A stretch of DNA of 64,000 nt from Gemmatimonadales bacterium (lineage in GTDB: Bacteria; Gemmatimonadota; Gemmatimonadetes; Gemmatimonadales; GWC2-71-9). Location: the NCBI GenBank assembly GCA_035575675.1, contig DATLXS010000182.1, positions 880 to 64,879 on the forward strand, read 5' to 3'. This document shows, piece by piece, positions 5,087-53,806 of this stretch. The stretch's first letter is position 1; every line of letters starts with the position of its first letter. The translations under genes were made by a program, and so were the position numbers. A model generated the notes under the pieces. The model saw only the letters and a program-made list of their open reading frames with translations. It made no database searches and had not been told where the DNA came from.

Positions 5087-5854
5087 TTAGGTGAAGTCTG
5101 GAATTGCGGCGCGCGCGAACGTCACGCCCTCGACCCGCGTCGCGCCGGCCTGCTCGAGGGCACGCGCTGCCTCAGCGAGCGTCGCGCCGGTTGTAAAAAC
5201 ATCATCGACCAGGATTAATGCGAAACTCGAAATGTGGAATGCGAAATTGACGCTTCCAGGTCCATTTTGGATTTCGCATTTCGCATTTCGCACTTCAAAC
5301 GCCCCCGCCACGTTCGCCAGACGCGTGTCCGGTGTCAACGCCGTTTGCGTCGGCGTCTCCCGCGTGCGGACGAGCAGGTCGGGAAGCACGGGAATCCGCC
5401 ACTGTCGGGCCAGCGCGCGCGCCAGCATCGCACTCTGGTTGTAGCCGCGCGTGCGCAAGCGCTTTGTGGCGAGAGGAATCGGGATGAGCACCGACGCTCC
5501 GTCGGCCGGGGACTGCCGTTTCCCCATCGCGATTGCCAAGTCGTCGGCGATCCGCGGCAGGCCGCCGTACTTCAGGGCGTGGACGGCGGGCCGGGCGTAC
5601 GCATCGAGCCACACCGCGGATCGCACCGCTCTGAGCGCCTCCGGCCACGCAACGCACAGCCGGCAGGGGCCGAAGTGGGGCTCGGGCTGGCCACACCGCT
5701 CGCACCAGGGTGGCCGCACCGCGCGCCAGCGCTGCCGGCACAGCGGGCAGACGATCCTGGCGGCATCGCGGGCATTGAGCAGACCGTGACAAATGAGACA
5801 CTCTGCAGGAAGGAGAAGCTGTTCAACCGCGGAGCGCACGGACGACGGCAGCAC
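5087..5854 (-). CDS. ComF-family phosphoribosyltransferase-like protein carrying an in-frame repeat insertion
   Basis: 255 aa. N-terminal double zinc ribbon (CLICHG..CPLCRQ..CERCGQ..CRLC) and a C-terminal PRPP loop LILVDDVFTTGATL. The AT-rich repeat at 5217-5293 is read in frame as NAKCEIQNGPGSVNFAFHISSFA. Confidence 0.8.
   Translation of the reverse strand: MLPSSVRSAVEQLLLPAECLICHGLLNARDAARIVCPLCRQRWRAVRPPWCERCGQPEPHFGPCRLCVAWPEALRAVRSAVWLDAYARPAVHALKYGGLPRIADDLAIAMGKRQSPADGASVLIPIPLATKRLRTRGYNQSAMLARALARQWRIPVLPDLLVRTRETPTQTALTPDTRLANVAGAFEVRNAKCEIQNGPGSVNFAFHISSFALILVDDVFTTGATLAEAARALEQAGATRVEGVTFARAAIPDFT
5217..5293. repeat. Inverted pair of GCGAAAT-type heptamer arrays inside comF
   Basis: Left arm AATGCGAAACTCGAAATGTGGAATGCGAAAT (5217-5247), a 23-nt spacer, and right arm ATTTCGCATTTCGCATTTCGCAC (5271-5293). 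The arms are reverse complements at the unit level. The region is visibly AT-richer than its surroundings. Confidence 0.85.
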
Positions 5855-24223: not shown

Positions 24224-24255
24224 CCACGCGATTACTCGAAGGGGGCTGGATAAAC

Positions 24256-24290
24256 GTAGGGGCGCAGCATGCTGCGCCCCTACATTTTTT
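24256..24290 (+). terminator. Rho-independent terminator between convergent genes
   Basis: Perfect palindrome GTAGGGGCGCAGC/ATGC-centred/GCTGCGCCCCTAC (24256-24283) followed by ATTTTTT (24284-24290). Confidence 0.75.
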
Positions 24291-28810: not shown

Positions 28811-29990
<1,180 letters not shown>

Positions 29991-34261: not shown

Positions 34262-35627
34262 ACTGTTCGTGCTGCTGGTGGTGCTTCCTGGAACGCTGAT
34301 CGCGCAGGCCGCGCCGGCCACTGCTCCCGCCGGACGAATCGCGTTCGAGCAGTTCACGCTGCCCAGTGGCCTGCGCGTCATCTATTCCGAAGACCACTCG
34401 ACGCCGATCGTCACGGTGGATGTGTGGTACGAGGTCGGCTCGCGCAACGAGCGCCCCGGCCGCTCGGGGTTCGCGCACCTGTTCGAGCACATGATGTTCC
34501 AGGGGTCGGCGCACATCAAAAAGGCCGAGCACAACAAGTTGATCGAGCGCGCCGGCGGCGAGTTCAACGGCTCGACCGCCGAGGACCGCACGAACTATTG
34601 GGAGACGGTGCCGTCGAACCGTCTCAACCTGGCGCTCTGGGCGGAAGCAGACCGGATGCGCTCGCTTGCGATCACCCAGGAGAACTTCGAGAACCAGCGG
34701 CAGGCGGTCAAAGAGGAACGCCGGCTGCGCGTCGACAATCAACCTTATCAGGGTGCGTTCACGGACGGTCTCACGTTGCCGTTCGACAGCACCAGCTGCT
34801 TCCCCTACGCCCACACCGTCATCGGCTCAATGGCCGATCTCGACGCGGCGAAACTTCCGGATGTCCAGGCGTTCTTCGACAGCTACTACGCGCCCAACAA
34901 CGCGACCCTCGTCGTGGTGGGCGATTTCGCGCCGAGCGAGCTGCGCCGCCTCGTGAATCAGTACTTCGCGGGGGCGCCGAGTCACCCGGTGCCGGAAGCG
35001 CCGCGGTGCGATGCGACGGCGACCGGCACCGTTCCCCGGCGCCGCGAGGTGCATGACGCGCAGGCAAATCTGGACGCGGTGCTCCGCATCTACCGCGTTC
35101 CGGACCATCGCCACGCCGACACGCCCGCGCTCGAGATCCTCAACATCATCCTCGGCCAGGGCGAGAGCTCGCGGCTCAACGTCTCGGTCGTGCGGCGGGA
35201 AAAGGCCGCGGTCGGGTCGGGCGCCATTCTCAACCCGTTCGGCTCGCGCAACGGGCCCGGGATCTGGGTCGCGTACGGTATCGTGAACTCGGGAGTGCCG
35301 GCGGACCGGCTGGACAGCCTGATTGGGGTGCAACTGGACAGCATTCGTGCCAACGGCATTACGCCGGACGAGCTCGACAAGGCGAAGAACGCGCTACGCG
35401 CCGGCTTCATTACCAACCGGGAGACCACGTTGGGCAAAGCGGAGGAGCTGCATCACTACCTGACGTTTCATACGTCGATCGAAGAGATCAACACCGATCT
35501 CGACCGGCTGCTCGCGGTGACGAGCGACGATGTGAAGCGGGTCGCGAACACCTACCTGGCGCCCGGCAATCTGACGCTGGTGGTCGTTCGTGCGGGTGCG
35601 GCGCCGGCGAGCGGAGGTGCCCAATGA
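34254..35627 (+). CDS. M16 (pitrilysin-family) zinc peptidase, active subunit
   Basis: 457 aa. Signal peptide MHKLFVLLVVLPGTLIAQA and an intact HLFEHMMFQGS (HxxEH) zinc motif. Confidence 0.9.
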   Translation: MHKLFVLLVVLPGTLIAQAAPATAPAGRIAFEQFTLPSGLRVIYSEDHSTPIVTVDVWYEVGSRNERPGRSGFAHLFEHMMFQGSAHIKKAEHNKLIERAGGEFNGSTAEDRTNYWETVPSNRLNLALWAEADRMRSLAITQENFENQRQAVKEERRLRVDNQPYQGAFTDGLTLPFDSTSCFPYAHTVIGSMADLDAAKLPDVQAFFDSYYAPNNATLVVVGDFAPSELRRLVNQYFAGAPSHPVPEAPRCDATATGTVPRRREVHDAQANLDAVLRIYRVPDHRHADTPALEILNIILGQGESSRLNVSVVRREKAAVGSGAILNPFGSRNGPGIWVAYGIVNSGVPADRLDSLIGVQLDSIRANGITPDELDKAKNALRAGFITNRETTLGKAEELHHYLTFHTSIEEINTDLDRLLAVTSDDVKRVANTYLAPGNLTLVVVRAGAAPASGGAQ

Positions 35628-37738
35628 ACCGGCGGAATGTGGGAATGATGGAACGATGGACTGGACTACTGCTTCTCCTTTCCATCATTCCATCATTCAT
35701 TCCATCATTCCATCTTTCCGCCCAGGAGCCCTTCCCCACCAAGGCACCGGCTCCCAGTCGCCTCCGGCCCGTGCAGTTCCCGCCGTTCCGGGATGTCGCA
35801 CTGCCGAACGGGATGACCCTGCTGCTGGTCGAGAATCACGAGCAGCCGACCCTCTCGGTGAGTCTCAGCTTCCGCGCGGGAACCGCGTACGATCCCGCCG
35901 GCAAAGAAGGGGTCGCGGCGCTGGTCGCGGAGCTGTTGACCAAGGGCACCCCCACGCGCACCGCCGACCAGATCGAGGCCGCGATCGAGGGTGTGGGCGG
36001 GAGCATCGGCGCGAGCACGGGCGACGACTTCCTGACGATCTCGACCGACGTGCTGAGCGATCACGCGGATCTGGCGTTCTCGCTGCTCGGCGATGTGACG
36101 CGACGGGCGACGTACCCCGAGCAGGAGCTGGAGCTCGCGCGCACGCGGTTCCTTTCGTCGCTCGAGGTGGAGCTGTCGCAGGCCGATAATGTCGCCGCGC
36201 GCGCGTTCCAGAAGGAGATTTACGGCCGCAATCCGTACGGCCGAACCACGAGCGTTGCCGCCTACAAGGCGATCACTCGGGACGACGTCGTGGGGTTCGC
36301 GGCGCGGCGGCTGCGTCCCGGTGGCGCGCTCCTCGTGATCTCAGGCGATATCACCCTGCCGCAAGCCCGCGCGTTCGCGACCGAGGCGTTCGGCACCTGG
36401 CGCGGCGCCGCGGCGCCGACGCCCGCATTTCCCGCGGTCCCCACCAAACGCGGCACGGACATCCTGCTCGTCAACCGGCCGGGCTCCGTGCAGTCGAATA
36501 TCGTGATCGGCAATACGACCTTCCTCCCGACCGACAGCGGCTACTACCCGGCGCGGATCGCGACGCACGTCTTGGGCGGTGGCAGTGATTCCCGCCTGTT
36601 CATGATCCTGCGCGAGCAGAAGAGCTGGACGTACGGCTCCTACGCCGCGCTGCGGCGCAGTCGCGGCATGGGATTCTGGCAAGCGACATTCGAGGGCCGC
36701 ACCGAGGTCACCGACAGCGCGCTGACGGAGCTGCTCCATCAGATCGACCGGATACGCACCGAGACCATTTCCGACAGTGAGCTCGTTGCGGCGAAGGGGT
36801 TCCTCGTCGGCTCCTTCCCGCTGACGATCGAGACGCCGCGCCAAATCGCGCAGGTCGTCACGTCGGCGCGGCTGCTCGGGCTCGGCGCGGACTACATCCA
36901 GCGCTATCGCGAACGCCTCACGGCGGTGAGTGCCCTGCGCGCGCGCGCCGCGGCGCAGCGCGTCTTCAAACGCGATGCGCTCACGATCGTGGTGGTCGGC
37001 GACGCCAAGGCGCTATACGACAAGCTCAAGGCGATCGCGCCCGTGCGACTCGTGGATGTCGGCGGCAAGTCGATGGATCCGGCCGACCTGAATCCGACGG
37101 GCGGGCCGGTGGCGTTCGATCGCAGTCAGATCGTGGCGCACAGCGACAGCTTCCAGGCACTGGTGCAAGGCAACGCACTGGGGGGTCAGACCTCGAAGGT
37201 TGTCGTCACCGGTGATTCGATCGTCTATACCGAATCGACCGTGATTGGTGCGTTCGTCCAGCAACAGTCGACGGCCGTGCTGAACAGCGACCTGTCGATG
37301 CGTCGGACCGATCAGACCAGCGTGGTTCAGGGCCAGCACACGGAGATCCATCTCGTTTACGCGGGCGGGCGAGTGAAGGGCACGAGCCAGACGCCGCAGC
37401 CCGGCGGTCCGAAGACGATCTCGGTCGACACGACGGTTACCGCGGGGACGATCGACGACAACGCGCTCGCGGTCCTGTTGCCCGCGCTGGCGCTCGAGCA
37501 AGGCAAAACCTTCAACCTGAACGTCTTCTCGTCCGGCGAAGGCGTGACCAAGGTCGTCAGCGTGAAGGTCGCCGGCGTCGAGAACGTCGCGGTGCCCGCG
37601 GGGACCATCCCGGCCTACCGGCTCGAGTTGTCCGGGATGCAGCTGCCGCTCGTGATGCATGTCAGCCAGCAGGCGCCGCGGCGGGTCGTGCGGGTTGCGC
37701 CGACGGGAGCGCCGCTGGTGTTTGAACTCGTGAAATAA
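35624..37738 (+). CDS. M16-family peptidase, non-catalytic partner with ~250-aa C-terminal extension
   Basis: 704 aa. M16 fold with no HxxEH motif. ATGA overlap with the upstream M16 gene. The first ~33 codons are encoded by the inverted repeat at 35631-35722. Confidence 0.8.
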   Translation: MNRRNVGMMERWTGLLLLLSIIPSFIPSFHLSAQEPFPTKAPAPSRLRPVQFPPFRDVALPNGMTLLLVENHEQPTLSVSLSFRAGTAYDPAGKEGVAALVAELLTKGTPTRTADQIEAAIEGVGGSIGASTGDDFLTISTDVLSDHADLAFSLLGDVTRRATYPEQELELARTRFLSSLEVELSQADNVAARAFQKEIYGRNPYGRTTSVAAYKAITRDDVVGFAARRLRPGGALLVISGDITLPQARAFATEAFGTWRGAAAPTPAFPAVPTKRGTDILLVNRPGSVQSNIVIGNTTFLPTDSGYYPARIATHVLGGGSDSRLFMILREQKSWTYGSYAALRRSRGMGFWQATFEGRTEVTDSALTELLHQIDRIRTETISDSELVAAKGFLVGSFPLTIETPRQIAQVVTSARLLGLGADYIQRYRERLTAVSALRARAAAQRVFKRDALTIVVVGDAKALYDKLKAIAPVRLVDVGGKSMDPADLNPTGGPVAFDRSQIVAHSDSFQALVQGNALGGQTSKVVVTGDSIVYTESTVIGAFVQQQSTAVLNSDLSMRRTDQTSVVQGQHTEIHLVYAGGRVKGTSQTPQPGGPKTISVDTTVTAGTIDDNALAVLLPALALEQGKTFNLNVFSSGEGVTKVVSVKVAGVENVAVPAGTIPAYRLELSGMQLPLVMHVSQQAPRRVVRVAPTGAPLVFELVK
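35631..35722. repeat. Inverted pair of GGAATGA-type arrays with GGCGGAA/TTCCGCC termini
   Basis: Left arm GGCGGAATGTGGGAATGATGGAACGATGGA (35631-35660), a 20-nt spacer, and right arm TCCATCATTCCATCATTCATTCCATCATTCCATCTTTCCGCC (35681-35722). Confidence 0.85.
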
Positions 37739-37751
37739 CAGGAGATCCCTC

Positions 37752-39158
37752 ATGCGATATCTGTCGACCAGGCTGGCGATGCCGGTGCTCCTCGCCGGCT
37801 GCGCCTCAGCGGGTGCACGGACGACGACCGCGGCCGCACCCCCACAACCCGCCGCGCCAGCCGCGGCGGCCACACAGGATGCGGGCATCGGGCCCCAGTA
37901 TCCATCGACCTATCAGCGCCATCCCAATCCTCCGGTGCTGATCCGCAATGCCACGATCATGACGGCGGCGGGACAGGAGATTCAGGGCGGCTCAATTCTG
38001 TTCCGTGACGGCCGGATCGTCGCGGTGGGCGCGAACGTCACGGCGCCGACCGACGCGACGATCGTCGACGGCACGGGCAAGTGGGTGACGCCGGGCGTGA
38101 TCGACACGCACTCGCACATCGGCGTCTACGCCGCACCCGGCACGTTCGGGGAATCGGACGGCAACGAGGCCACGAGCCCGGTGACGGCCGAGGTGTGGGC
38201 GGAGCATTCGTTCTGGCCGCAGGATCCGCAGATCCCGCTCGCCATCGCGGGCGGTGTCACGACGATCCAGGCGCTCCCGGGGTCCGCGAATCTCATCGGC
38301 GGACGCAGCGCGGTGTTGAAGCTCGTCCCGGCGCGCTCGGTGCAAGAGATGAAGTTCCCCGGCGCGCACTACGGGCTGAAAATGGCGTGCGGTGAGAATC
38401 CCAAGCGCGTGTATGGAAACCGCGGCGGTCCGTCGACGCGGATGGGCAACATGGCCGGCTACCGCGCGGCATTCATCGCCGCTCAAGCCTATCGCCAGAA
38501 GTGGGACAAGTGGAACAAGGATCACCAGGGCGATCCGCCGGAGCGCAATCTGCGGAACGAGTCGCTCGCCGAGGTGCTGCGCGGCAACATCTACGTGCAG
38601 AACCACTGCTACCGCGCGGACGAAATGATGCAGATGCTCGATCTCGCCCATGAGTTCGGGTTCAAGATCCGCTCGTTCCACCACGCGGTGGAGGCGTACA
38701 AGATCGCCGACGTGCTGGCGCGCGAGGGCACGGCGGTGTCGATCTGGTCGGACTGGTGGGGTTTCAAAGAAGAGGCGATGGACGGGATCTACGAGAACGC
38801 CGCGCTGGTGCAGCAGGCGGGTGGGCGCGTGGTGATCCACTCCGATGACGCATCCGGCATTCAACGGCTCAATCAGGAGGCGGCAAAGGCGATGTATCAC
38901 GGCCGGCGCGCCGGAATTCCCATCACGCGGGACCAGGCGGTGCGCTGGTTCACCGCCAACCCGGCCTGGGTGCTCGGCCTCGACTCGATCGTCGGGTCGC
39001 TCGAGCCCGGCAAGATGGCCGATGTCGTGCTCTGGTCGGCCGATCCGCTTTCCGTCTATGCCCGCGCGATTCAGGTCTACAACGACGGCTGGCTCGTCTA
39101 CGACCGCAACGATCCGGCGCATCAACCAAGAACCGACTTCACGCTGGGGCAGCCATGA
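37752..39158 (+). CDS. Amidohydrolase-family lipoprotein (metal-dependent, HxH intact)
   Basis: 468 aa. Lipobox LLAGC. TPGVIDTHSHIG metal motif and a C-terminal ...PGKMADVVLWS pattern. Confidence 0.8.
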   Translation: MRYLSTRLAMPVLLAGCASAGARTTTAAAPPQPAAPAAAATQDAGIGPQYPSTYQRHPNPPVLIRNATIMTAAGQEIQGGSILFRDGRIVAVGANVTAPTDATIVDGTGKWVTPGVIDTHSHIGVYAAPGTFGESDGNEATSPVTAEVWAEHSFWPQDPQIPLAIAGGVTTIQALPGSANLIGGRSAVLKLVPARSVQEMKFPGAHYGLKMACGENPKRVYGNRGGPSTRMGNMAGYRAAFIAAQAYRQKWDKWNKDHQGDPPERNLRNESLAEVLRGNIYVQNHCYRADEMMQMLDLAHEFGFKIRSFHHAVEAYKIADVLAREGTAVSIWSDWWGFKEEAMDGIYENAALVQQAGGRVVIHSDDASGIQRLNQEAAKAMYHGRRAGIPITRDQAVRWFTANPAWVLGLDSIVGSLEPGKMADVVLWSADPLSVYARAIQVYNDGWLVYDRNDPAHQPRTDFTLGQP

Positions 39159-40363
39159 TCGCCTTCCTGCTTGCCCAGACGATCGCGATCACCGGGGGCA
39201 CGGTGTATCCGGTTTCGGGTCCGAAGATCGAAAACGCCACGGTGCTGATCCGTGATGGCCGGATTGCCGCCGTCGGAGCGACCGTGGCCGTGCCGGCAGG
39301 TGCGACGCGCATCGATGCATCCGGCAAGTGGGTAACACCCGGCTTCATCGATGGCGCGGGTCAGATGGGATTGCGGGAGATTGGCGCGGTCGACAATACG
39401 AGTGAGTACACCTTCCGGGGCAACGACGTCGCGGCTGCCTTCAACGTGCTCGAAGGCGTCAATCCGGCGTCCGCGCTCATCGCCGTGAACCGGATGGAAG
39501 GGATCACCACCACCCTCGCGGTGCCCAACGGCAATCTGATTTGGGGCCAGGCGGTGTTGATCGATCTCGATGGCGCGACGATCGAGGCGATGCGGGTGAA
39601 ATCACCCACCGCGATGGTCGCCGATTTGAGCGAAGGGTCCAAGGCCGCGGGCGGCGGCTCCCGCGCGGGCGTGGCGCAACGGCTGCGCCGCGTACTCGAT
39701 GACGCGCGCGAATACGCGACGCGGCGTGCCGATTATCGCCGCGCGCAGATCCAGCCGCTCAGCGCGAGCGCGGCGGACCTCGAGGCGCTGCAGCCGGTGC
39801 TGCGTGGTGAGCTGCCGCTGCTCGTGGTTGCGAACCGCCGCAGCGATATCGAGACCGCGCTGCGCATCGCCAAGGAGTACAAGCTGCGGCTGATTCTCGC
39901 GGGGGTCGCCGAGGGGTGGATGATCGCGAGCGAGATCGCGGCGGTGGGGGTGCCGGTGCTGGTCGAGCCGCTCGACAACATTCCGAGCTACGACGCGCTC
40001 GGCATCCGCTACGAGAACGCGCCGTTGCTCGCGAAGGGCGGCGTGAAGGTCGCGCTGATGGAGACGGCGACCGAGAATACCAGAGACCTGCGGCAGCAGG
40101 CAGGCAACGCCGTTGCGAACGGGATGCCGTGGGAGCAGGCGTTGCGGGCCGTGACGCTCACACCCGCCGAGATCTTTGGCGTGGCGGATCGGTACGGATC
40201 ACTGGACGCGGGGAAAGTTGCGAACGTCGTCGTCTGGACCGGTGATCCCTTCGATTTCTCGACGGGGGTCGAGCACGTATTCATACGGGGCAAAGACATT
40301 CGGTTGCGGAGCAGACAGACGGAGTTGCTGGAGAGGTATAAGACGCTGCCGCCGAAGTACTAG
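39155..40363 (+). CDS. Amidohydrolase-family paralog lacking the HxH metal motif
   Basis: 402 aa. Same fold (TPGFIDGAGQMG where HxH is expected; ..GKVANVVVWTGDP). ATGA overlap with the upstream paralog. No signal peptide from the only available start. Confidence 0.7.
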   Translation: MIAFLLAQTIAITGGTVYPVSGPKIENATVLIRDGRIAAVGATVAVPAGATRIDASGKWVTPGFIDGAGQMGLREIGAVDNTSEYTFRGNDVAAAFNVLEGVNPASALIAVNRMEGITTTLAVPNGNLIWGQAVLIDLDGATIEAMRVKSPTAMVADLSEGSKAAGGGSRAGVAQRLRRVLDDAREYATRRADYRRAQIQPLSASAADLEALQPVLRGELPLLVVANRRSDIETALRIAKEYKLRLILAGVAEGWMIASEIAAVGVPVLVEPLDNIPSYDALGIRYENAPLLAKGGVKVALMETATENTRDLRQQAGNAVANGMPWEQALRAVTLTPAEIFGVADRYGSLDAGKVANVVVWTGDPFDFSTGVEHVFIRGKDIRLRSRQTELLERYKTLPPKY

Positions 40364-40776
40364 GCGGTAACAGGCGGGATTGGGCGGTAACGGGCGGTAG
40401 GTGGCGAACCCACCTGCCGCTTGTTTTTGTCGATTGCGGCATACAATCGCCACACCAACGTCCCTGCATGATTCCGCAGGCGTTCAATCGTTTGCCACGC
40501 CTCGTCTGACATCAACTCCAGGTCCTTGGCGAGTCTCAACGCGACAGATAACTCAGACAATGAACCGAGAGCGATGTCGAGGTAACGCCTGAACTCGGCG
40601 GATCCCCGTTTCGCCGATCCTTCTGCGATGTTGGCGACGACAGAGAAAGCCGCACGTCGGGACTGCGAAGTTAGTCCGTAGAGCTCATGCTTTGGGAAAG
40701 TCGCGGTAATCCGATAAACATCCAGAGTCAGTTCGTAAGAAAGCTTCCATGCTTGAAAGCGCTCATAGGGGAGCAT
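40360..40776 (-). CDS. Four-helix-bundle protein (23S rRNA intervening-sequence protein / Avd-like family)
   Basis: 138 aa. FQAWKLSYELTLDVY..FPKHELYGLTSQSRRAAFSVVANIAEGSAKRGSAEFRRYLDIALGSLSEL matches the TIGR02436/PF05635 pattern. The C-terminal tail (..GSPPTARYRPIPPVTA) is read from array A. Visibly lower G+C than its neighbours. Confidence 0.85.
   Translation of the reverse strand: MLPYERFQAWKLSYELTLDVYRITATFPKHELYGLTSQSRRAAFSVVANIAEGSAKRGSAEFRRYLDIALGSLSELSVALRLAKDLELMSDEAWQTIERLRNHAGTLVWRLYAAIDKNKRQVGSPPTARYRPIPPVTA
40363..40429 (+). repeat. GGCGGTAnnn 10-bp iteron array ending in a terminator hairpin (array A)
   Basis: GGCGGTAACA GGCGGGATTG GGCGGTAACG GGCGGTAGGT starts on the last base of the TAG stop. 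The last unit forms stem GCGGTAGGTGG-CGAAC-CCACCTGCCGC followed by TTGTTTTTG. Confidence 0.9.
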
Positions 40777-40844
40777 CAGTGGATCGTAGCGTTCAGTCTG
40801 ACAAGCGGGTTACTCAATCGAACGCATGTGGGCACAAGAAAATT

Positions 40845-40878
40845 CCGCCTGTTGCCGCCTTTTGCCGCCCATTACCGT
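40845..40878 (-). repeat. 10-bp iteron array B (C-rich on + strand)
   Basis: CCGCCTGTTG CCGCCTTTTG CCGCCCATTA CCGTC. On the minus strand it reads TGA-GACGGTAATG GGCGGCAAAA GGCGGCAACA GGCGG, starting directly after the stop of the 40880-41680 gene. Confidence 0.85.
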
Positions 40879-40879
40879 C

Positions 40880-41680
40880 TCAGCGTCTCGACCAGACGAG
40901 TATCGCTCCGCAAGGACTCAAATAACCTGAGTACTGGACGGGTACACCCTCGGGTCCGGGATATACTTCCAGCGCTTCGATATTGAATGGGTTGACGAGG
41001 TCATCGAGGCTGAGTCCACCGCTAGCCGTGCCGCCGGGCTGCAGCAAGACACCGTCGAAAACGACGCTGGGGTTACATTTTCCGCGAAAGAACATCGTGT
41101 TCGCGGCTCGCATGGTGACTGTACATTGCAAGCCGGGACCGCCTTGTGAAGGGCCCCGCTGCTGTCCCCCGCAAGTGACGCGCACTCCAGACATCCCATG
41201 AAGTAGGTCAGTAAGGTGGAGGGGATCCCGCTTGTCGATTTCGTCGCGGGTGAGGAAATGTCCAAACCCCTCCTGTCTGCGTCTGTAAAACCCGGCGTCC
41301 GCCAAGTATGGCAACCGTCTCTCGATTTCCTTCGCTACGACCGTAACGGTGTCGAGAGTTATCGGGTTCGAAGGCAAGCTCAGCGATACGCGTGCCGTGA
41401 AGGCTGAACTGAAAAGAAAGGGTTTGCTTAGACTGATCGGATAACCGATCCTACTGATTAGCAGGCGATACTCACCGAGGCGCGGAATGCTGAAGGTGAA
41501 CTGACCGTCCGAGCTTGTGACTAGAGACTTCATCGCCGTGCCCGCGCTATCGAGGAGAAGGATGCGTGCACCGACGATGGGTTTTCCGGACACACTGTCC
41601 AGCACCGTCCCGGCGAGGACCTGTGCTTCAGCGGGATGCGCGAGCAATCCGAGTGTCAGCACGCAAACGGAGAGTCGCAT
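40880..41680 (-). CDS. CarboxypepD_reg-like + TonB-plug-like domain protein (no barrel)
   Basis: 266 aa. Signal peptide MRLSVCVLTLGLLAHPAEAQ, LAGTVLDSVSGKPIVGARILLLD..SDGQFTF..GEYRLLISRIGY, then plug-like LTDLLHGMSGVRV..VVFDGVLL..NIEALEVYPGP. Lower G+C than its surroundings. Confidence 0.6.
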   Translation of the reverse strand: MRLSVCVLTLGLLAHPAEAQVLAGTVLDSVSGKPIVGARILLLDSAGTAMKSLVTSSDGQFTFSIPRLGEYRLLISRIGYPISLSKPFLFSSAFTARVSLSLPSNPITLDTVTVVAKEIERRLPYLADAGFYRRRQEGFGHFLTRDEIDKRDPLHLTDLLHGMSGVRVTCGGQQRGPSQGGPGLQCTVTMRAANTMFFRGKCNPSVVFDGVLLQPGGTASGGLSLDDLVNPFNIEALEVYPGPEGVPVQYSGYLSPCGAILVWSRR

Positions 41681-41698
41681 CTCGTTTAGTGTACCAAT

Positions 41699-41764
41699 GA
41701 AAAAGCGGCAGGGTCCGCAAACCCCTACCGCCCATTACCGCCTTGTACCGCCTGTTACCGCCTA
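41699..41764 (-). repeat. 10-bp iteron array C plus terminator hairpin downstream of rpmA
   Basis: The minus strand reads TAG-GCGGTAACAG GCGGTACAAG GCGGTAATGG GCGGTAGGG-GTTTGCGGA-CCCTGCCGC-TTTTT. The first 17 nt are identical to array A (TAGGCGGTAACAGGCGG) on the opposite strand. Confidence 0.9.
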
Positions 41765-42040
41765 GTTGTTCGCCGCCGCTTTCACTGCAGCCGGATACAC
41801 ACTCACCTGAAACCGCTGCTTGTTCTTGTGCTCGAACTTCACGTGACCGTCGATGGTCGTGAACAGCGTATCGTTCGCACCGCGGCGCACGTTCTTGCCG
41901 GGATGGAACTTGGTGCCGCGCTGAATGACGATGATGGTCCCGGCCCGCACGAATTCCCCGCCGAACCGCTTCACGCCGAGGTACTTCGGATTCGAGTCGC
42001 GCCCGTTGCGCGAGGAGCCGACGCCCTTCTTATGAGCCAT
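41762..42040 (-). CDS. rpmA: 50S ribosomal protein L27
   Basis: 92 aa. [39 protein letters not shown]. Confidence 0.97.
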
Positions 42041-45443: not shown

Positions 45444-45487
45444 GACGGTAAGGGACGGTAAAGAAGCGACGGTAAAGGACGGTAAGG
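45444..45487. repeat. GACGGTAAnG iteron array, single arm
   Basis: GACGGTAAGG GACGGTAAAGAAGC GACGGTAAAG GACGGTAAGG fills the recQ-stop to acyl-CoA-dehydrogenase-start spacer. C-rich in the sense of both flanking genes. Confidence 0.85.
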
Positions 45488-45488
45488 G

Positions 45489-48837: not shown

Positions 48838-49581
48838 ATGCCCAAGGTGCACTGTTCGCTGTGTAACGCTCCCGTGGAGGGCCGCACGCTCGCGTCCCCG
48901 CAGAAGTTGGAAAACCGCATCATCGACCTGATAAAAAAAGACCGGCCGGAATGGGAAGGGACGCGTGGCATCTGCGCCAACTGCCTCGAGACCTATCGCG
49001 CCAAGAAGTTCGTGACCTATCTCGAAGCCGAGTATCAGAAGCTGTCGGAGCTCGAGCACTCAGTGGTCTCGAAGATCACGCGCCGCGGGCGGGTCAGTAA
49101 GCTCGTGCATCAGGACATGGAGACGTCGATGACGTTCGGCGAGCACGTGGCCGACAAGGTGGCGCAGTTTGGGGGAAGCTGGCGCTTCATCGGGCTCTTT
49201 GGAGGCATCCTGCTCGTGTGGATGGTGGTGAACGCCTGGGTGCTCGCGACCCATCCCTTCGACCCCTACCCCTTCATTCTCTTGAACCTCGTGCTGTCGA
49301 CGCTCGCGGCGCTCCAGGCGCCGGTGATCATGATGAGCCAGAACCGCCAGGCGCACAAAGACCGGATGCAGGCGAATCAGGATTACGAGATCAACTTGAT
49401 GGCGGAGATTGAAATCCGGGATCTACACGACAAGCTGGATTCGCTGCGATTCAAGCAATGGCACGAGCTGTGGCACATTCAAAAGCGGCAAATCGAACTG
49501 CTCGAGCATCTCTGCGCGAAGGGTGCGGATCCCGAGCTTAAGGCTCCCGCGCCGAGTCCCTATGTGCCCCCTGAACTCTGA
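48838..49581 (+). CDS. DUF1003-family membrane protein with N-terminal zinc ribbon
   Basis: 247 aa. AGGAGA RBS at 48825-48830. CSLC..CANC ribbon, then FGGSWRFIGLF..PYPFILLNLVLS..APVIMMSQNRQ..D (DUF1003 core). Confidence 0.75.
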   Translation: MPKVHCSLCNAPVEGRTLASPQKLENRIIDLIKKDRPEWEGTRGICANCLETYRAKKFVTYLEAEYQKLSELEHSVVSKITRRGRVSKLVHQDMETSMTFGEHVADKVAQFGGSWRFIGLFGGILLVWMVVNAWVLATHPFDPYPFILLNLVLSTLAALQAPVIMMSQNRQAHKDRMQANQDYEINLMAEIEIRDLHDKLDSLRFKQWHELWHIQKRQIELLEHLCAKGADPELKAPAPSPYVPPEL

Positions 49582-49652
49582 CGGTAGGCAAGGCGACGGT
49601 AGATGAAACGACGGTAGGTAAGGCGACGGTAGATAAAACGACGGTAGATACC
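49579..49652 (+). repeat. GACGGTAG 15-bp iteron array (left arm)
   Basis: T-GACGGTAGGCAAGGC GACGGTAGATGAAAC GACGGTAGGTAAGGC GACGGTAGATAAAAC GACGGTAGATACC. It begins inside the TGA stop of the DUF1003 gene and shows an alternating 30-bp higher-order repeat. Confidence 0.9.
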
Positions 49653-49692: not shown

Positions 49693-50061
49693 ATGCTCGC
49701 GCATGAGAGAATCCACGCTTGGAAGTTGTGTCACGAGCTGGTGCTGGCTGTATACGATGCAACGACATCGTTTCCTAAACATGAACTCTACGGGTTGACC
49801 TCCCAAGCTCGGCGCGCCGCTTTTTCTGCGGCGGTCAACATTGTCGAAGGCTCCGCCAAGCGTGGCCCCGCCGAATTTCGACGATTCCCGGATATGAGTG
49901 TTGGTTCGCTTGCGGAGCTCGCCTACACGTTGCGTGTGGCGAAGGACCTGGGGTTCATTGATGACGAGCGCTGGCGGTCATTAGAACAACGTCGAAGACA
50001 AGCAGGCATGATGACGTGGAGACTCTACTCGGCGGTTGCGAGAGCGGCGAGAAGAGTGTGA
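49693..50061 (+). CDS. Four-helix-bundle protein (23S rRNA intervening-sequence protein / Avd-like family), paralog 2
   Basis: 122 aa from ATG 49693 (MLAHERIHAWKLCHELVLAVY..FPKHELYGLTSQARRAAFSAAVNIVEGSAKRGPAEFRRF). Aligns end to end with the 40360-40776 protein at roughly 60% identity by eye. Confidence 0.85.
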   Translation: MLAHERIHAWKLCHELVLAVYDATTSFPKHELYGLTSQARRAAFSAAVNIVEGSAKRGPAEFRRFPDMSVGSLAELAYTLRVAKDLGFIDDERWRSLEQRRRQAGMMTWRLYSAVARAARRV

Positions 50062-50063
50062 CA

Positions 50064-50132
50064 CTTACCGTCGCCTTATCTACCGTCCTTTACCGTCGTA
50101 TTATCTACCGTCGTATTATCTACGGTCGTCTC
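50064..50132 (-). repeat. CTACCGTC iteron array (right arm, inverted)
   Basis: CTTACCGTC GCCTTATCTACCGTC CTTTACCGTC GTATTATCTACCGTC GTATTATCTACGGTC. The array ends 1 nt before the TCA (minus-strand TGA stop, 50133-50135) of the 50133-50450 gene. Confidence 0.9.
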
Positions 50133-52914: not shown

Positions 52915-52918
52915 AAAC

Positions 52919-53013
52919 GACGGTAAGGGACGGTAGGTGAAACGACGGTAAGGGACGGTAAACCCTTACCGTCGTTTACCGTCGTAGTACCTACCGTCGC
53001 ATTACCTACCGTC
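52919..53013. repeat. Back-to-back inverted GACGGTA arrays with no cargo ('empty' hairpin)
   Basis: GACGGTAAGG GACGGTAGGTGAAAC GACGGTAAGG GACGGTAAAC | CCTTACCGTC GTTTACCGTC GTAGTACCTACCGTC GCATTACCTACCGTC. It sits between convergent genes, and the TAG stop of the methyltransferase (53006-53008) lies inside the array. Confidence 0.9.
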
Positions 53014-53806
53014 GATTCTCCAGGCTCACCGTCCGTATCCACTCGGCGGGATCCGTCGGCGCGTGAGGTACCAGCCCCCGCCACACCTTGTAGCGCAGCT
53101 TCCGCAAGCCGGTCAGCGCACGCCCATCCGCAAACGGAATCAGTCGCCGCACTCGTCGCGCCAGGGCCAGCCGCGCGGCGCGCCACCGCGCGCCGTCGCC
53201 CGGCCGATATTGCGCCCACCCGATCGAGCCGCAGAGACCCGCAGGACCGAATTGGTCTGAGGCGAGCAGCTCCTCGGCAAACACGCGCACCGGCCCCTCA
53301 AAGCTGTGCAGTACGTCATGCATCGCGACGATCGCACCCGGCGCCAGGTGCGGCCGAAAGAGGTCGATATCCTCCTTCGCGCCGCGGTACGTGTGGTCGC
53401 CGTCGATCCACAGGAACCGGATCGACCGAGTCCACCCCTGCGCGAGGTCACGGGAATAGGCGCGATGCGCCTCGACAGTTCGCTCGACGCCTGCGTCGCG
53501 CAGCGACGCCTGGAAGTCATCCCACGACGATTGCTGCGAGCCATGTCCAAAGTCTGTGACGGCGGGGGCGGAGTGCGGATCGACGCTTACGACGGGGCCG
53601 AGGCCATAGTGCTGCGCGATGGAGGCCAGCCCAACGGTGGACTTTCCCTTGTAGCTCCCGATCTCGAGGATCGTCCCGCGGGCGGGGGCGCACGCCGCCG
53701 CGAGCGCCAGGAACCGCGCTTCGCGCTCCGTTAAAAACCCCGGAGCGGCCCGGACGCGTGTCCAGGCCTCCTCAACGGCTTGTCCAAGATCAGACGGCGT
53801 GGTCAG
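53006..53806 (-). CDS. Class I SAM-dependent methyltransferase (Methyltransf_24-like)
   Basis: GTILEIGSYKGKSTVGLA (motif I), VVSVDPH and LWIDGDHTY. Homology begins near FLTEREARFL. There is no ATG/GTG/TTG in frame between 54079 and the domain. CTG at 53806 would make a CTGA overlap with the bacilliredoxin stop. Confidence 0.65.
   Translation of the reverse strand: MTTPSDLGQAVEEAWTRVRAAPGFLTEREARFLALAAACAPARGTILEIGSYKGKSTVGLASIAQHYGLGPVVSVDPHSAPAVTDFGHGSQQSSWDDFQASLRDAGVERTVEAHRAYSRDLAQGWTRSIRFLWIDGDHTYRGAKEDIDLFRPHLAPGAIVAMHDVLHSFEGPVRVFAEELLASDQFGPAGLCGSIGWAQYRPGDGARWRAARLALARRVRRLIPFADGRALTGLRKLRYKVWRGLVPHAPTDPAEWIRTVSLENRR

Follow-up and report, generated by a model that had tools for sequence, protein, structure and literature searches.

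What is a gene of a family first known from intervening sequences (IVSs) of 23S rRNA doing between two protein-coding genes, enclosed by short tandem repeats that are inverted copies of each other? This question is raised by a 64,000-nt stretch of contig DATLXS010000182.1 of a Gemmatimonadales bacterium (hereafter the window), in which a gene for a four-helix-bundle (4HB) protein of the PF05635/TIGR02436 family lies at the junction of an amidohydrolase gene and rpmA. The family is very large (17,118 clusters at 50% identity from a single-sequence search). Its function is unknown, it is represented by two crystal structures, its rRNA-derived name is misleading, and its appearances in cas loci are unexplained. 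Our overall reading, on which we are evenly balanced between belief and doubt, is that the locus is an IVS-type exchangeable cassette outside rRNA, whose protein would maintain or spread the array-bounded unit. Its plan (40363-40879) consists of three to five short G-rich units, the TIGR02436/PF05635 gene, and the same units reverse-complemented. The parts of the locus are the following.

39155-40363, plus strand: host amidohydrolase gene (PF01979/PF07969), whose stop codon TAG at 40361-40363 adjoins array A
40363-40399, plus strand: array A, four 10-nt units (GGCGGTAACA, GGCGGGATTG, GGCGGTAACG, GGCGGTAGGT), the 3' (reverse-complement) array of cassette 1
40394-40428, plus strand: hairpin of the last array A unit and one inverted unit (GCGGTAGGTGG/CCACCTGCCGC), then TTGTTTTT
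40360-40776, minus strand: 4HB gene 1 (138 aa; PF05635, TIGR02436), with its conserved core at 40411-40776 (122 aa)
40363-40410, minus strand: read-through tail of 4HB gene 1, crossing the hairpin and array A
40777-40842, minus strand: spacer from array B to the 4HB start, with a putative promoter; 98-100% identical in the relative L148
40843-40879, minus strand: array B, the 5' array of cassette 1 (GACGGTAATG GGCGGCAAAA GGCGGCAACA GGCGGAA), beginning at the stop codon of the plug gene
40880-41680, minus strand: CarboxypepD_reg+Plug gene (266 aa; the plug gene), an accessory cargo gene in its own right at this hotspot
41699-41732, minus strand: hairpin (GGCGGTAGGG/CCCTGCCGC) and TTTTT, intrinsic-terminator-like for rpmA
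41726-41762, minus strand: array C, a run of four units adjoining the rpmA stop; as an inverted copy, 88% identical to array A
41762-42040, minus strand: host rpmA (L27), from the gene call and a domain match

The arrays of cassette 1 are built of 10-nt GGCGGTAAC-like units, and TRF gave a period of 10 for arrays A, B and C alike. Array B is a degenerate reverse complement of array A. An earlier note, made from the letters of this DNA alone, had proposed the order amidohydrolase, A, 4HB, B, plug, C, rpmA, and every element was recovered in its place. It had also called A and C near-identical inverted copies, and 38 of 43 positions of array A indeed match the reverse complement of array C, with TAGGCGGTAACAGGCGG exact. 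Its impression that the enclosed genes differ in composition from their flanks was borne out by the G+C content at third codon positions: 0.62 in the 4HB gene and 0.64 in plug, vs 0.84 in amidohydrolase and rpmA and 0.88 in rplU and the RNase G gene (host genes 0.81-0.89). The cassette is compositionally foreign. The CTAG at 40360-40363 does close both convergent open reading frames (ORFs), those of 4HB gene 1 and the amidohydrolase, as had been noted. The shared stop is secondary, however, because it is reached through the final 16 codons of the 4HB ORF, which run on through the hairpin and array A. The second 4HB protein of the window and relatives of 120 aa (e.g., that of locus L165) end ahead of the array, and the tail is poorly modelled (pLDDT 51-59).

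The product of 4HB gene 1 (4HB-1) matches PF05635 with an E-value of 1.7e-30 and 105.8 bits (cut-off 33.8) and TIGR02436 with 100 bits (cut-off 24). The paralog, 4HB-2, is 59% identical to it and scores 90.3 bits against TIGR02436 (cut-off 24). In the AlphaFold (AF2) monomer model of 4HB-1 (pLDDT 86.8), helices span residues 2-24, 33-54, 59-85, and 91-122. The top Foldseek match is XCC0516 (2GSC; TM 0.91, 42% identity), followed by BT_0352 (2RLD; TM 0.90) and then by Avd (4DWL) and a diversity-generating retroelement (DGR) ribonucleoprotein (8UB7 and entries related to it) at TM 0.85-0.87. XCC0516 of Xanthomonas campestris is also the closest solved structure by sequence (phmmer, E 1e-22). Both 2GSC and 2RLD contain chains A-E, and XCC0516 is given as a homopentamer by Lin et al. 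2006 as cited in PMC4990558. The window ORF is under strong purifying selection, with dN/dS within 4HB clades of 0.04-0.07.

Avd shares the four-helix-bundle fold and a weak hidden Markov model relation, and it is a pentameric nucleic-acid-binding scaffold. Nevertheless, 4HB-1 is judged not to be Avd proper because 4HB-1 and 4HB-2 fall far below the cut-off of the Avd equivalog NF033474 (24.3 and 17.3 bits vs 80) and because no reverse transcriptase or template repeat/variable repeat (TR/VR) pair adjoins either copy in the gene calls and domain search of the window. The Avd model PF22296 gave 19.2 bits vs a cut-off of 40. The TR/VR pair of a DGR measures ~130 bp, whereas the units here are short, tandem, and inverted. 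The genes beside the two 4HB copies encode the amidohydrolase, the plug protein, L27, L21, an RNase E/G-family protein, a DUF1003 protein, a zinc-ribbon-like ORF product (no Pfam match), and a methyltransferase. No defence system was matched by PADLOC models. Rfam gave no rRNA in the window and no known RNA family over the arrays.

To survey the family, one genome per species was scanned with both 4HB proteins as queries, which returned 80 loci, among them loci of Gemmatimonadota, Acidobacteriota, Planctomycetota, Chloroflexota, Bacteroidota, Cyanobacteria, Verrucomicrobiota, Pseudomonadota, CPR, and Cloacimonadota. For 82 homologs from more than 10 phyla, we counted the inverted 7-mers common to the 160 nt upstream of the conserved core and the 220 nt on its downstream side. 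At least 10 were found around 64/82 4HB genes (78%) vs 23/428 displaced control windows (5%), and only 1% of the flanks of other genes in the same loci reached this threshold. With a threshold of 15, the figures were 59% of the 4HB genes vs 1% of the controls. The expectation of the earlier note that other paralogs would be array-flanked thus holds for the second paralog in the window as well as for these 64 homologs. By eye, nearly all 4HB genes stand between a sense-strand array and its reverse complement, and direct-only arrays were not seen among the surveyed homolog loci. The design recurs around the 4HB family across phyla, and none of 20 homologous loci contained rRNA according to Rfam.

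The units themselves are lineage-specific. They include GACGGTAAGG, GGCGGCGAAG, GGCGGTCA, GTCGTTG, AGCATTC, GGGGCTA, GTCAACA, GAATTCA, TAGCTGT, GGAATGT, GGAGTCA, GAAGCCA, and more. Array size has its mode at four units and is mostly three to five. In Gemmatimonadales the spacing is 9-10 nt, compared with 7 nt in most phyla. For 26/30 independent protein clades (p 6e-5, either strand), the G-rich arm is the 5' one, and protein clade and unit type correspond among the homologs. Further arrays of a given unit are found at other places of its genome. An unannotated 4HB copy on an Azospirillum plasmid is likewise flanked by inverted GAGGACG-type arrays. Locus L020, a Gemmatimonadetes metagenome-assembled genome contig (QHTY01000020), has three 4HB genes in a span of 3.6 kb, accompanied by GGCGGCGA-type arrays, which suggests very high copy numbers in some genomes.

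These data also dispose of chance, i.e., GC-rich intergenic simple repeats that happen to lie beside a small ORF. It is true that lone GGCGGTAAC units with at most one mismatch are not enriched window-wide (19 observed vs 13 expected). However, clusters of three or more units with the core G[AG]CGGTA number 7 in the 64-kb window and none in 300 dinucleotide-matched simulations, the pattern is conserved across phyla against controls, and the ORF is under purifying selection. We regard this explanation as refuted. Another simple candidate, arrays as a three-frame stop barrier that would render insertion at gene ends harmless, was also rejected: inward arrays close 2.10 frames vs 2.00 when shuffled (p 0.47).

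How the cassette came to this site can be approached through relatives. A metagenome scan with the amidohydrolase yielded 80 relatives at 86-98% protein identity, and their amidohydrolase-rpmA junctions were compared. The uninterrupted junction that the earlier note had proposed to look for exists: empty alleles have 8-23 nt, with a shared spacer TAA-AACCATCGAGGCCGCC-TTA or with the two stop codons overlapping in CTAG. In other relatives the junction is taken up by arrays alone (several unit types, 42-127 nt), by a 4HB gene alone (~500-560 nt; three protein clades, 51-59% identical to that of the window), by the plug gene alone (~900 nt), by a lipoprotein-like gene (~700 nt), or by several of these combined (up to 1.9 kb). 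Where the junction is filled, arrays adjoin both stop codons. Relatives with both the 4HB and plug genes at the site but without arrays were not seen. The junction states are scattered over the host tree, and the closest relative (6% nucleotide divergence) has an arrays-only allele. The comparison shows the cassette to be an accessory insert at a hotspot, placed between convergent host genes whose ancestral spacer is 8-23 nt. The natural empty, filled, and ORF-less alleles are available for a study of gain and loss.

The plug gene occurs without a 4HB gene in L101, L106, and L147 and is missing from many relatives. In L147 the stop codons of the plug and amidohydrolase genes overlap, arrays A and B are both missing, and array C is kept. 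Since L147 is without both, arrays A and B are seen at that junction only with the 4HB gene. The suggestion that plug is a second array-bounded gene was consequently dropped: array C is a terminator-like module of rpmA, array B is the 5' array of the 4HB cassette, and L147 has plug without A or B. The third cargo gene (L091, L099, L103, L112, L089, L100, L162) codes for a product of ~150-185 aa that starts like a lipoprotein (MRALAVALLAA..IACNP). An array-plus-hairpin module of its own accompanies it, and in L099 this module with adjacent bases duplicates the rpmA 3' end.

Evidence of exchange between strains comes from pairs of relatives. The window and L148 are 95-100% identical over 40361-40840, which takes in array A, the hairpin, the ORF, and the spacer. 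Their 4HB proteins are 96% identical, vs ~85% for the flanking amidohydrolase and ~65% for plug; array B of L148 has two extra units. Array A is nearly identical in L148, L109, and L131 despite diverged flanking coding sequence. The converse is found between L116 and L118, where flanks, arrays, and hairpins are ~97-100% identical and the 4HB ORF is 65-82% identical (synonymous divergence, pS, 0.68 vs 0.08). Judging from this pattern, the ORF was replaced by recombination within the arrays. Such comparisons show a cassette that is exchanged between strains as a unit with the arrays as borders, and an ORF that is replaceable inside identical arrays. Loss is also apparent. L108 equals L110 minus the ORF. 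It has retained the 4HB upstream region, and arrays-only alleles are therefore deletion products in at least some cases. In the same two strains L116 (5200-5240) and L118 (2335-2375), the sequence from the amidohydrolase stop to the array contains the remnant of a unit, GGGCGGCC, after which the last two codons and stop of the gene are repeated (AAATACTAG) with the synonymous variants of another strain. The duplicate is a footprint of inter-strain recombination at the junction.

Several observations weigh against the reading of the locus as a self-maintaining or spreading cassette. The alleles show gain, loss, and recombinational exchange, and transposition is not demonstrated. No consistent target-site duplication was found when the empty alleles L130, L151, and L147 were compared with filled ones; duplication of TA within CTAG would suit the rpmA junction but not the plug junction. 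Exact-protein and close-homolog look-ups revealed no second genomic site with the same cassette, and the closest homologs (73-96% identical) are all at the amidohydrolase-rpmA junction. Cassette 2, described below, is syntenic in other Gemmatimonadales species, once inverted. Of the surveyed homologs, 18/82 lack clear inverted arrays, and the match of clade and unit is explicable by co-inheritance alone. Arrays also occur without any 4HB gene, beside other cargo, and even inside a coding region. A simple scan of the spacer found no sigma-70 promoter. Binding of the arrays by the protein is purely inferred. Finally, the 4HB gene on the Pseudanabaena galeata plasmid NZ_CP112875 (L172, 46268-46627), which lies between cas6 and cas4, has arrays of ~12 to 16 heptamers (GCTAAAA / GCCAAAA) in direct orientation.

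With respect to such loci, 23S_rRNA_IVP genes have been noted inside cas operons (PMC3936711). Arrays beside 4HB genes might pass for CRISPR arrays, which would inflate reported CRISPR associations and may distort the corresponding statistics.

A further question is in which form the cassette is expressed. Arrays A and C each begin at the stop codon of the neighbouring gene, and their hairpin modules face inward. In module A a 16-bp stem (centroid -27.7 kcal/mol) precedes UUGUUUUU, and in module C a 10-bp stem precedes UUUUU. Because arrays A and C each end in an inward hairpin plus T-run, these modules look like intrinsic terminators for amidohydrolase and rpmA, in this copy only. A simple promoter/terminator scanner missed module A and partly detected the hairpin of module C. 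Array B of relatives has the same hairpin-plus-T design behind plug, and in L109 and L131 array B ends in a hairpin. In Gemmatimonadales homologs, conserved TTGA..TTGAC motifs were seen by eye between the 5' array and the ATG. The 4HB gene would have its own promoter there, in this copy between array B and the ATG, with a near-leaderless start.

The earlier note had pointed to a design in which a long stem holds the ORF in its loop. In the RNA explanation built on it, read-through RNA folds the arrays into a stem that RNase III cuts, releasing the 4HB mRNA or removing the insert. Folds of whole-cassette RNAs do pair the arrays in the minimum-free-energy structure (cassette 2 z -5.5, cassette 1 z -3.2). 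There is also a precedent in the Coxiella 23S IVS, which has a 28-bp terminal stem cut by RNase III, with cleavage at the first repeat (PMC4990558). Tandem GACAGAT heptamers, of strain-variable copy number, lie in this stem directly upstream of the S23p ORF (PMC4990558). However, arrays A and C of cassette 1 are followed by hairpin plus T-run, and in L165 a hairpin plus T-run sits between the 5' array and the ORF. A G.U strand asymmetry was not found across 64 cassettes, with the sense strand more stable in 33 vs 28 (p 0.72), although such an asymmetry is present in an ORF-less hairpin of the window described below. In addition, the variant units of cassette 2 are not mirrored in register between its arms, as read from the sequence. 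Because of the local terminators and the lack of a sense/antisense stability difference, the ORF-in-stem RNA is unlikely as the normal form of this copy, and we consider the RNase III explanation improbable. In many other phyla the 5' array stands directly ahead of the ribosome-binding site, and there this form may well hold.

The comparison with rRNA IVSs nevertheless remains instructive for the cassette reading. The link that the earlier note drew to ORF-bearing rRNA IVSs is supported by the shared PF05635 protein family and by the Coxiella heptamers in the terminal stem. In both settings the ORF lies between terminal inverted repeats, and by predicted folds the window arrays can pair into a long stem around it. 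IVS ORFs ('S23p') are known from Leptospira, Coxiella, Brucella, and Xanthomonas, and the distribution of ORF-bearing IVSs is patchy, as for a selfish element (PMC4990558). The differences are as follows. There is no 23S rRNA helix (9, 25, 45) here, and the cassette lies between convergent protein-coding genes. It has a hairpin plus T-run in arrays A and C and an apparent promoter of its own, and RNase III processing is not indicated by the local terminators and the missing G.U strand bias. Strong purifying selection acts on the window ORF; that of Coxiella is decaying.

Elsewhere in the window, a second cassette and several arrays without an ORF were found:

49580-49650, plus strand: 5' array of cassette 2, five GACGGTAG units at 15-nt spacing, beginning inside the TGA stop of the DUF1003 gene
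49693-50061, plus strand: 4HB gene 2 (122 aa), 59% identical to 4HB gene 1
50065-50129, minus strand: 3' array of cassette 2, with TACCGTC units that reverse-complement the 5' array
52915-53015, no strand: ORF-less inverted array pair of GACGGTAAGG type between convergent genes
45444-45488, plus strand: solo array between the genes for the helicase and the acyl-CoA dehydrogenase, made up of four GACGGTAA(G/A)G units
35634-35719, plus strand: ORF-less inverted array pair of period 8 (GGAATGNT / ANCATTCC) within the signal-peptide coding sequence of the second M16 peptidase

At the syntenic DUF1003/zinc-ribbon site of L074, a divergent 4HB gene (47% identical) stands in the opposite orientation, which fits either inversion via the flanking inverted arrays or an independent insertion. 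A further back-to-back inverted pair at 5215-5296 (GCGAAAT / ATTTCGC, period 7) is apparently intergenic.

The pair at 52915-53015 forms a hairpin of ~45 bp (-65 kcal/mol, z -8.9). The M16 pair (region 35624-35730) directly follows an ATGA stop/start overlap. In relatives from L085 to L164, this junction contains array pairs with 8-nt units of GGAATGTT, GGACGGTT or GGGCGGTT type, 95-110 nt long and always in frame, and other relatives have a short ordinary signal peptide in place of the array pair. Complementarity of the arms is kept in every unit family. RNAalifold gave no consensus structure, as registers differ between unit families, and single-sequence folds were used instead. All array-bearing alleles folded (7/26) form a hairpin of ~30-40 bp (z -4 to -8), and in 22/26 alleles the sense strand has the more stable fold of the two (p 0.0015, for sequences that are related to each other). 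Because the alleles at this junction do so, array pairs can be said to persist and turn over without a nearby 4HB gene. Cassettes can supply terminator-like modules to their neighbours, and one array pair supplies a signal peptide. ORF-less rRNA IVSs of ~100 nt exist beside ORF-bearing ones, and it is worth noting that the ORF-less pairs of the window match them in size.

Arrays of this kind lead to the explanation that they are autonomous hairpins or host terminators, shaped by slippage and concerted evolution at junctions, and that 4HB genes merely land or survive in their loops. The arrays would then be a target and not a component of the element. The turnover of array pairs at the M16 junction is the chief argument for this explanation. 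The three ORF-less pairs in the window fit this, as do the arrays-only alleles of several unit types at the rpmA junction, the array modules bordering other cargo genes, and the M16 junction, where three unit families of ~100 nt interchange with complementarity kept and the sense strand favoured. In addition, rRNA IVSs replace hairpin tetraloops. Against it, rRNA IVS copies carry their own repeats, L147 without the 4HB gene is also without A and B, the high-identity block shared with L148 spans arrays and ORF together, and the arrays-only allele of L108 is a deletion product with the 4HB upstream region kept. The association of 78% vs 1-5% in controls also speaks against it. We consider this explanation unlikely.

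A different alternative resembles the RAYT/REPIN system: the 4HB protein would mobilise or copy arrays in trans, and the ORF-less pairs would be its non-autonomous passengers. [quoted passage not shown] Array clusters outnumber 4HB genes by 7 vs 2 in 64 kb. In X. campestris, 186 GGGAATC arrays of unknown function have been described, with 70 cases of close convergent pairs (PMC4692102). XCC0516 lies at one of them; supplementary array #15 (four units) is 6 nt from accB and overlaps the XCC0516 start codon, on which that paper does not comment (PMC4692102). Unit type tracks protein clade, and solo arrays of the same unit are ~40x commoner in homolog flanks than mismatched units, with only 3 counted. 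However, 4HB-1 is a 120-aa all-helical, Avd-like bundle in which no nuclease or transposase fold and no HUH (Y1), DDE, or recombinase features were found, and the ends are tandem arrays instead of one fixed palindrome. Neither a target-site duplication nor a cassette at a second site was found, and the GGAATGNT and GCGAAAT arrays have no cognate 4HB gene in the window. We regard mobilisation in trans as very improbable. An integron-like reading, in which every cargo gene has a hairpin behind it, was rejected, as there is no integrase among the genes examined and no attC-like conserved core.

If the cassette reading is followed, the 4HB gene would be transcribed from the promoter proposed above, and its Avd-like, probably pentameric product would recognise the repeat units on single-stranded nucleic acid. 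Through this binding, the protein would promote the upkeep or spread of the cassette. First entry into a new site would be distinct from spread between strains, which would go by homologous recombination through the arrays. That the 4HB protein binds its arrays is a tentative idea that we hold to be rather doubtful. Recognition of units by a ring protein would explain the modal number of four units, the spacing of 7-15 nt, and the constant G-rich polarity. The candidate ligands of 4HB-1, 4HB-2, and XCC0516 would be (GGCGGUAAC)4, (GACGGUAG+spacer)4, and (GGGAAUC)4, respectively. A candidate ligand can thus be named for a 4HB protein, its own flanking units, and the two paralogs would serve as mutual specificity controls.

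By analogy only, the trp RNA-binding attenuation protein (TRAP) is a ring oligomer that reads one GAG/UAG repeat per subunit, with variable spacers, on single-stranded RNA and in connection with terminator hairpins. It differs as an 11-mer beta-sandwich of unrelated fold and oligomer. It is somewhat more doubtful still that TIGR02436 rings read tandem units sequence-specifically, one per subunit on single-stranded RNA or DNA, and with their arrays make up a hitherto unrecognised class of pan-bacterial self-maintaining palindromic elements. If true, rRNA IVSs, Xanthomonas and cyanobacterial heptamer arrays, cas-operon 4HB genes, and many repeat-built terminators would be one system.

Xanthomonas GGGAATC, Nostoc GGGGA(C/T)T and cyanobacterial short tandemly repeated repetitive (STRR) arrays consist of 7-nt tandem units in a few to ~20 copies, and are intergenic, often in convergent pairs and conserved in position (PMC4692102). 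In contrast to these, the units of the window are 10-15 nt apart and without G3 runs. The same paper treats the arrays as possible G-quadruplex elements and draws no link to the 4HB family. In the literature searched, nothing was found that links the 4HB family to flanking tandem or inverted arrays beyond the Coxiella heptamers and this unconnected paper on simple sequence repeats (SSRs). IVS ORFs, Avd-like bundles, and heptamer SSR arrays are each known; their single shared architecture appears to be undescribed there. One architecture would tie together the 4HB family, the Xanthomonas and cyanobacterial heptamer arrays, and the old question of the origin of rRNA IVSs.

Two minor features of the window were also recorded. 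At 24254-24285, a perfect REP-like palindrome, GTAGGGGCGCAGCATGCTGCGCCCCTAC, is followed by a T-run, and it is also present in L090, L101, and L106 at the amidohydrolase junction. It is a second, unrelated dispersed hairpin element that recurs at unrelated sites. In a thiolase gene (29586-29628), an array-like run GGCGGCGAAG GGCGGCGAAG GGCGGGGAGG GGCGGCAATG encodes the loop AAKGGEGRGGAAM; it may be an array that became fixed in coding sequence, or merely GC-rich codons.

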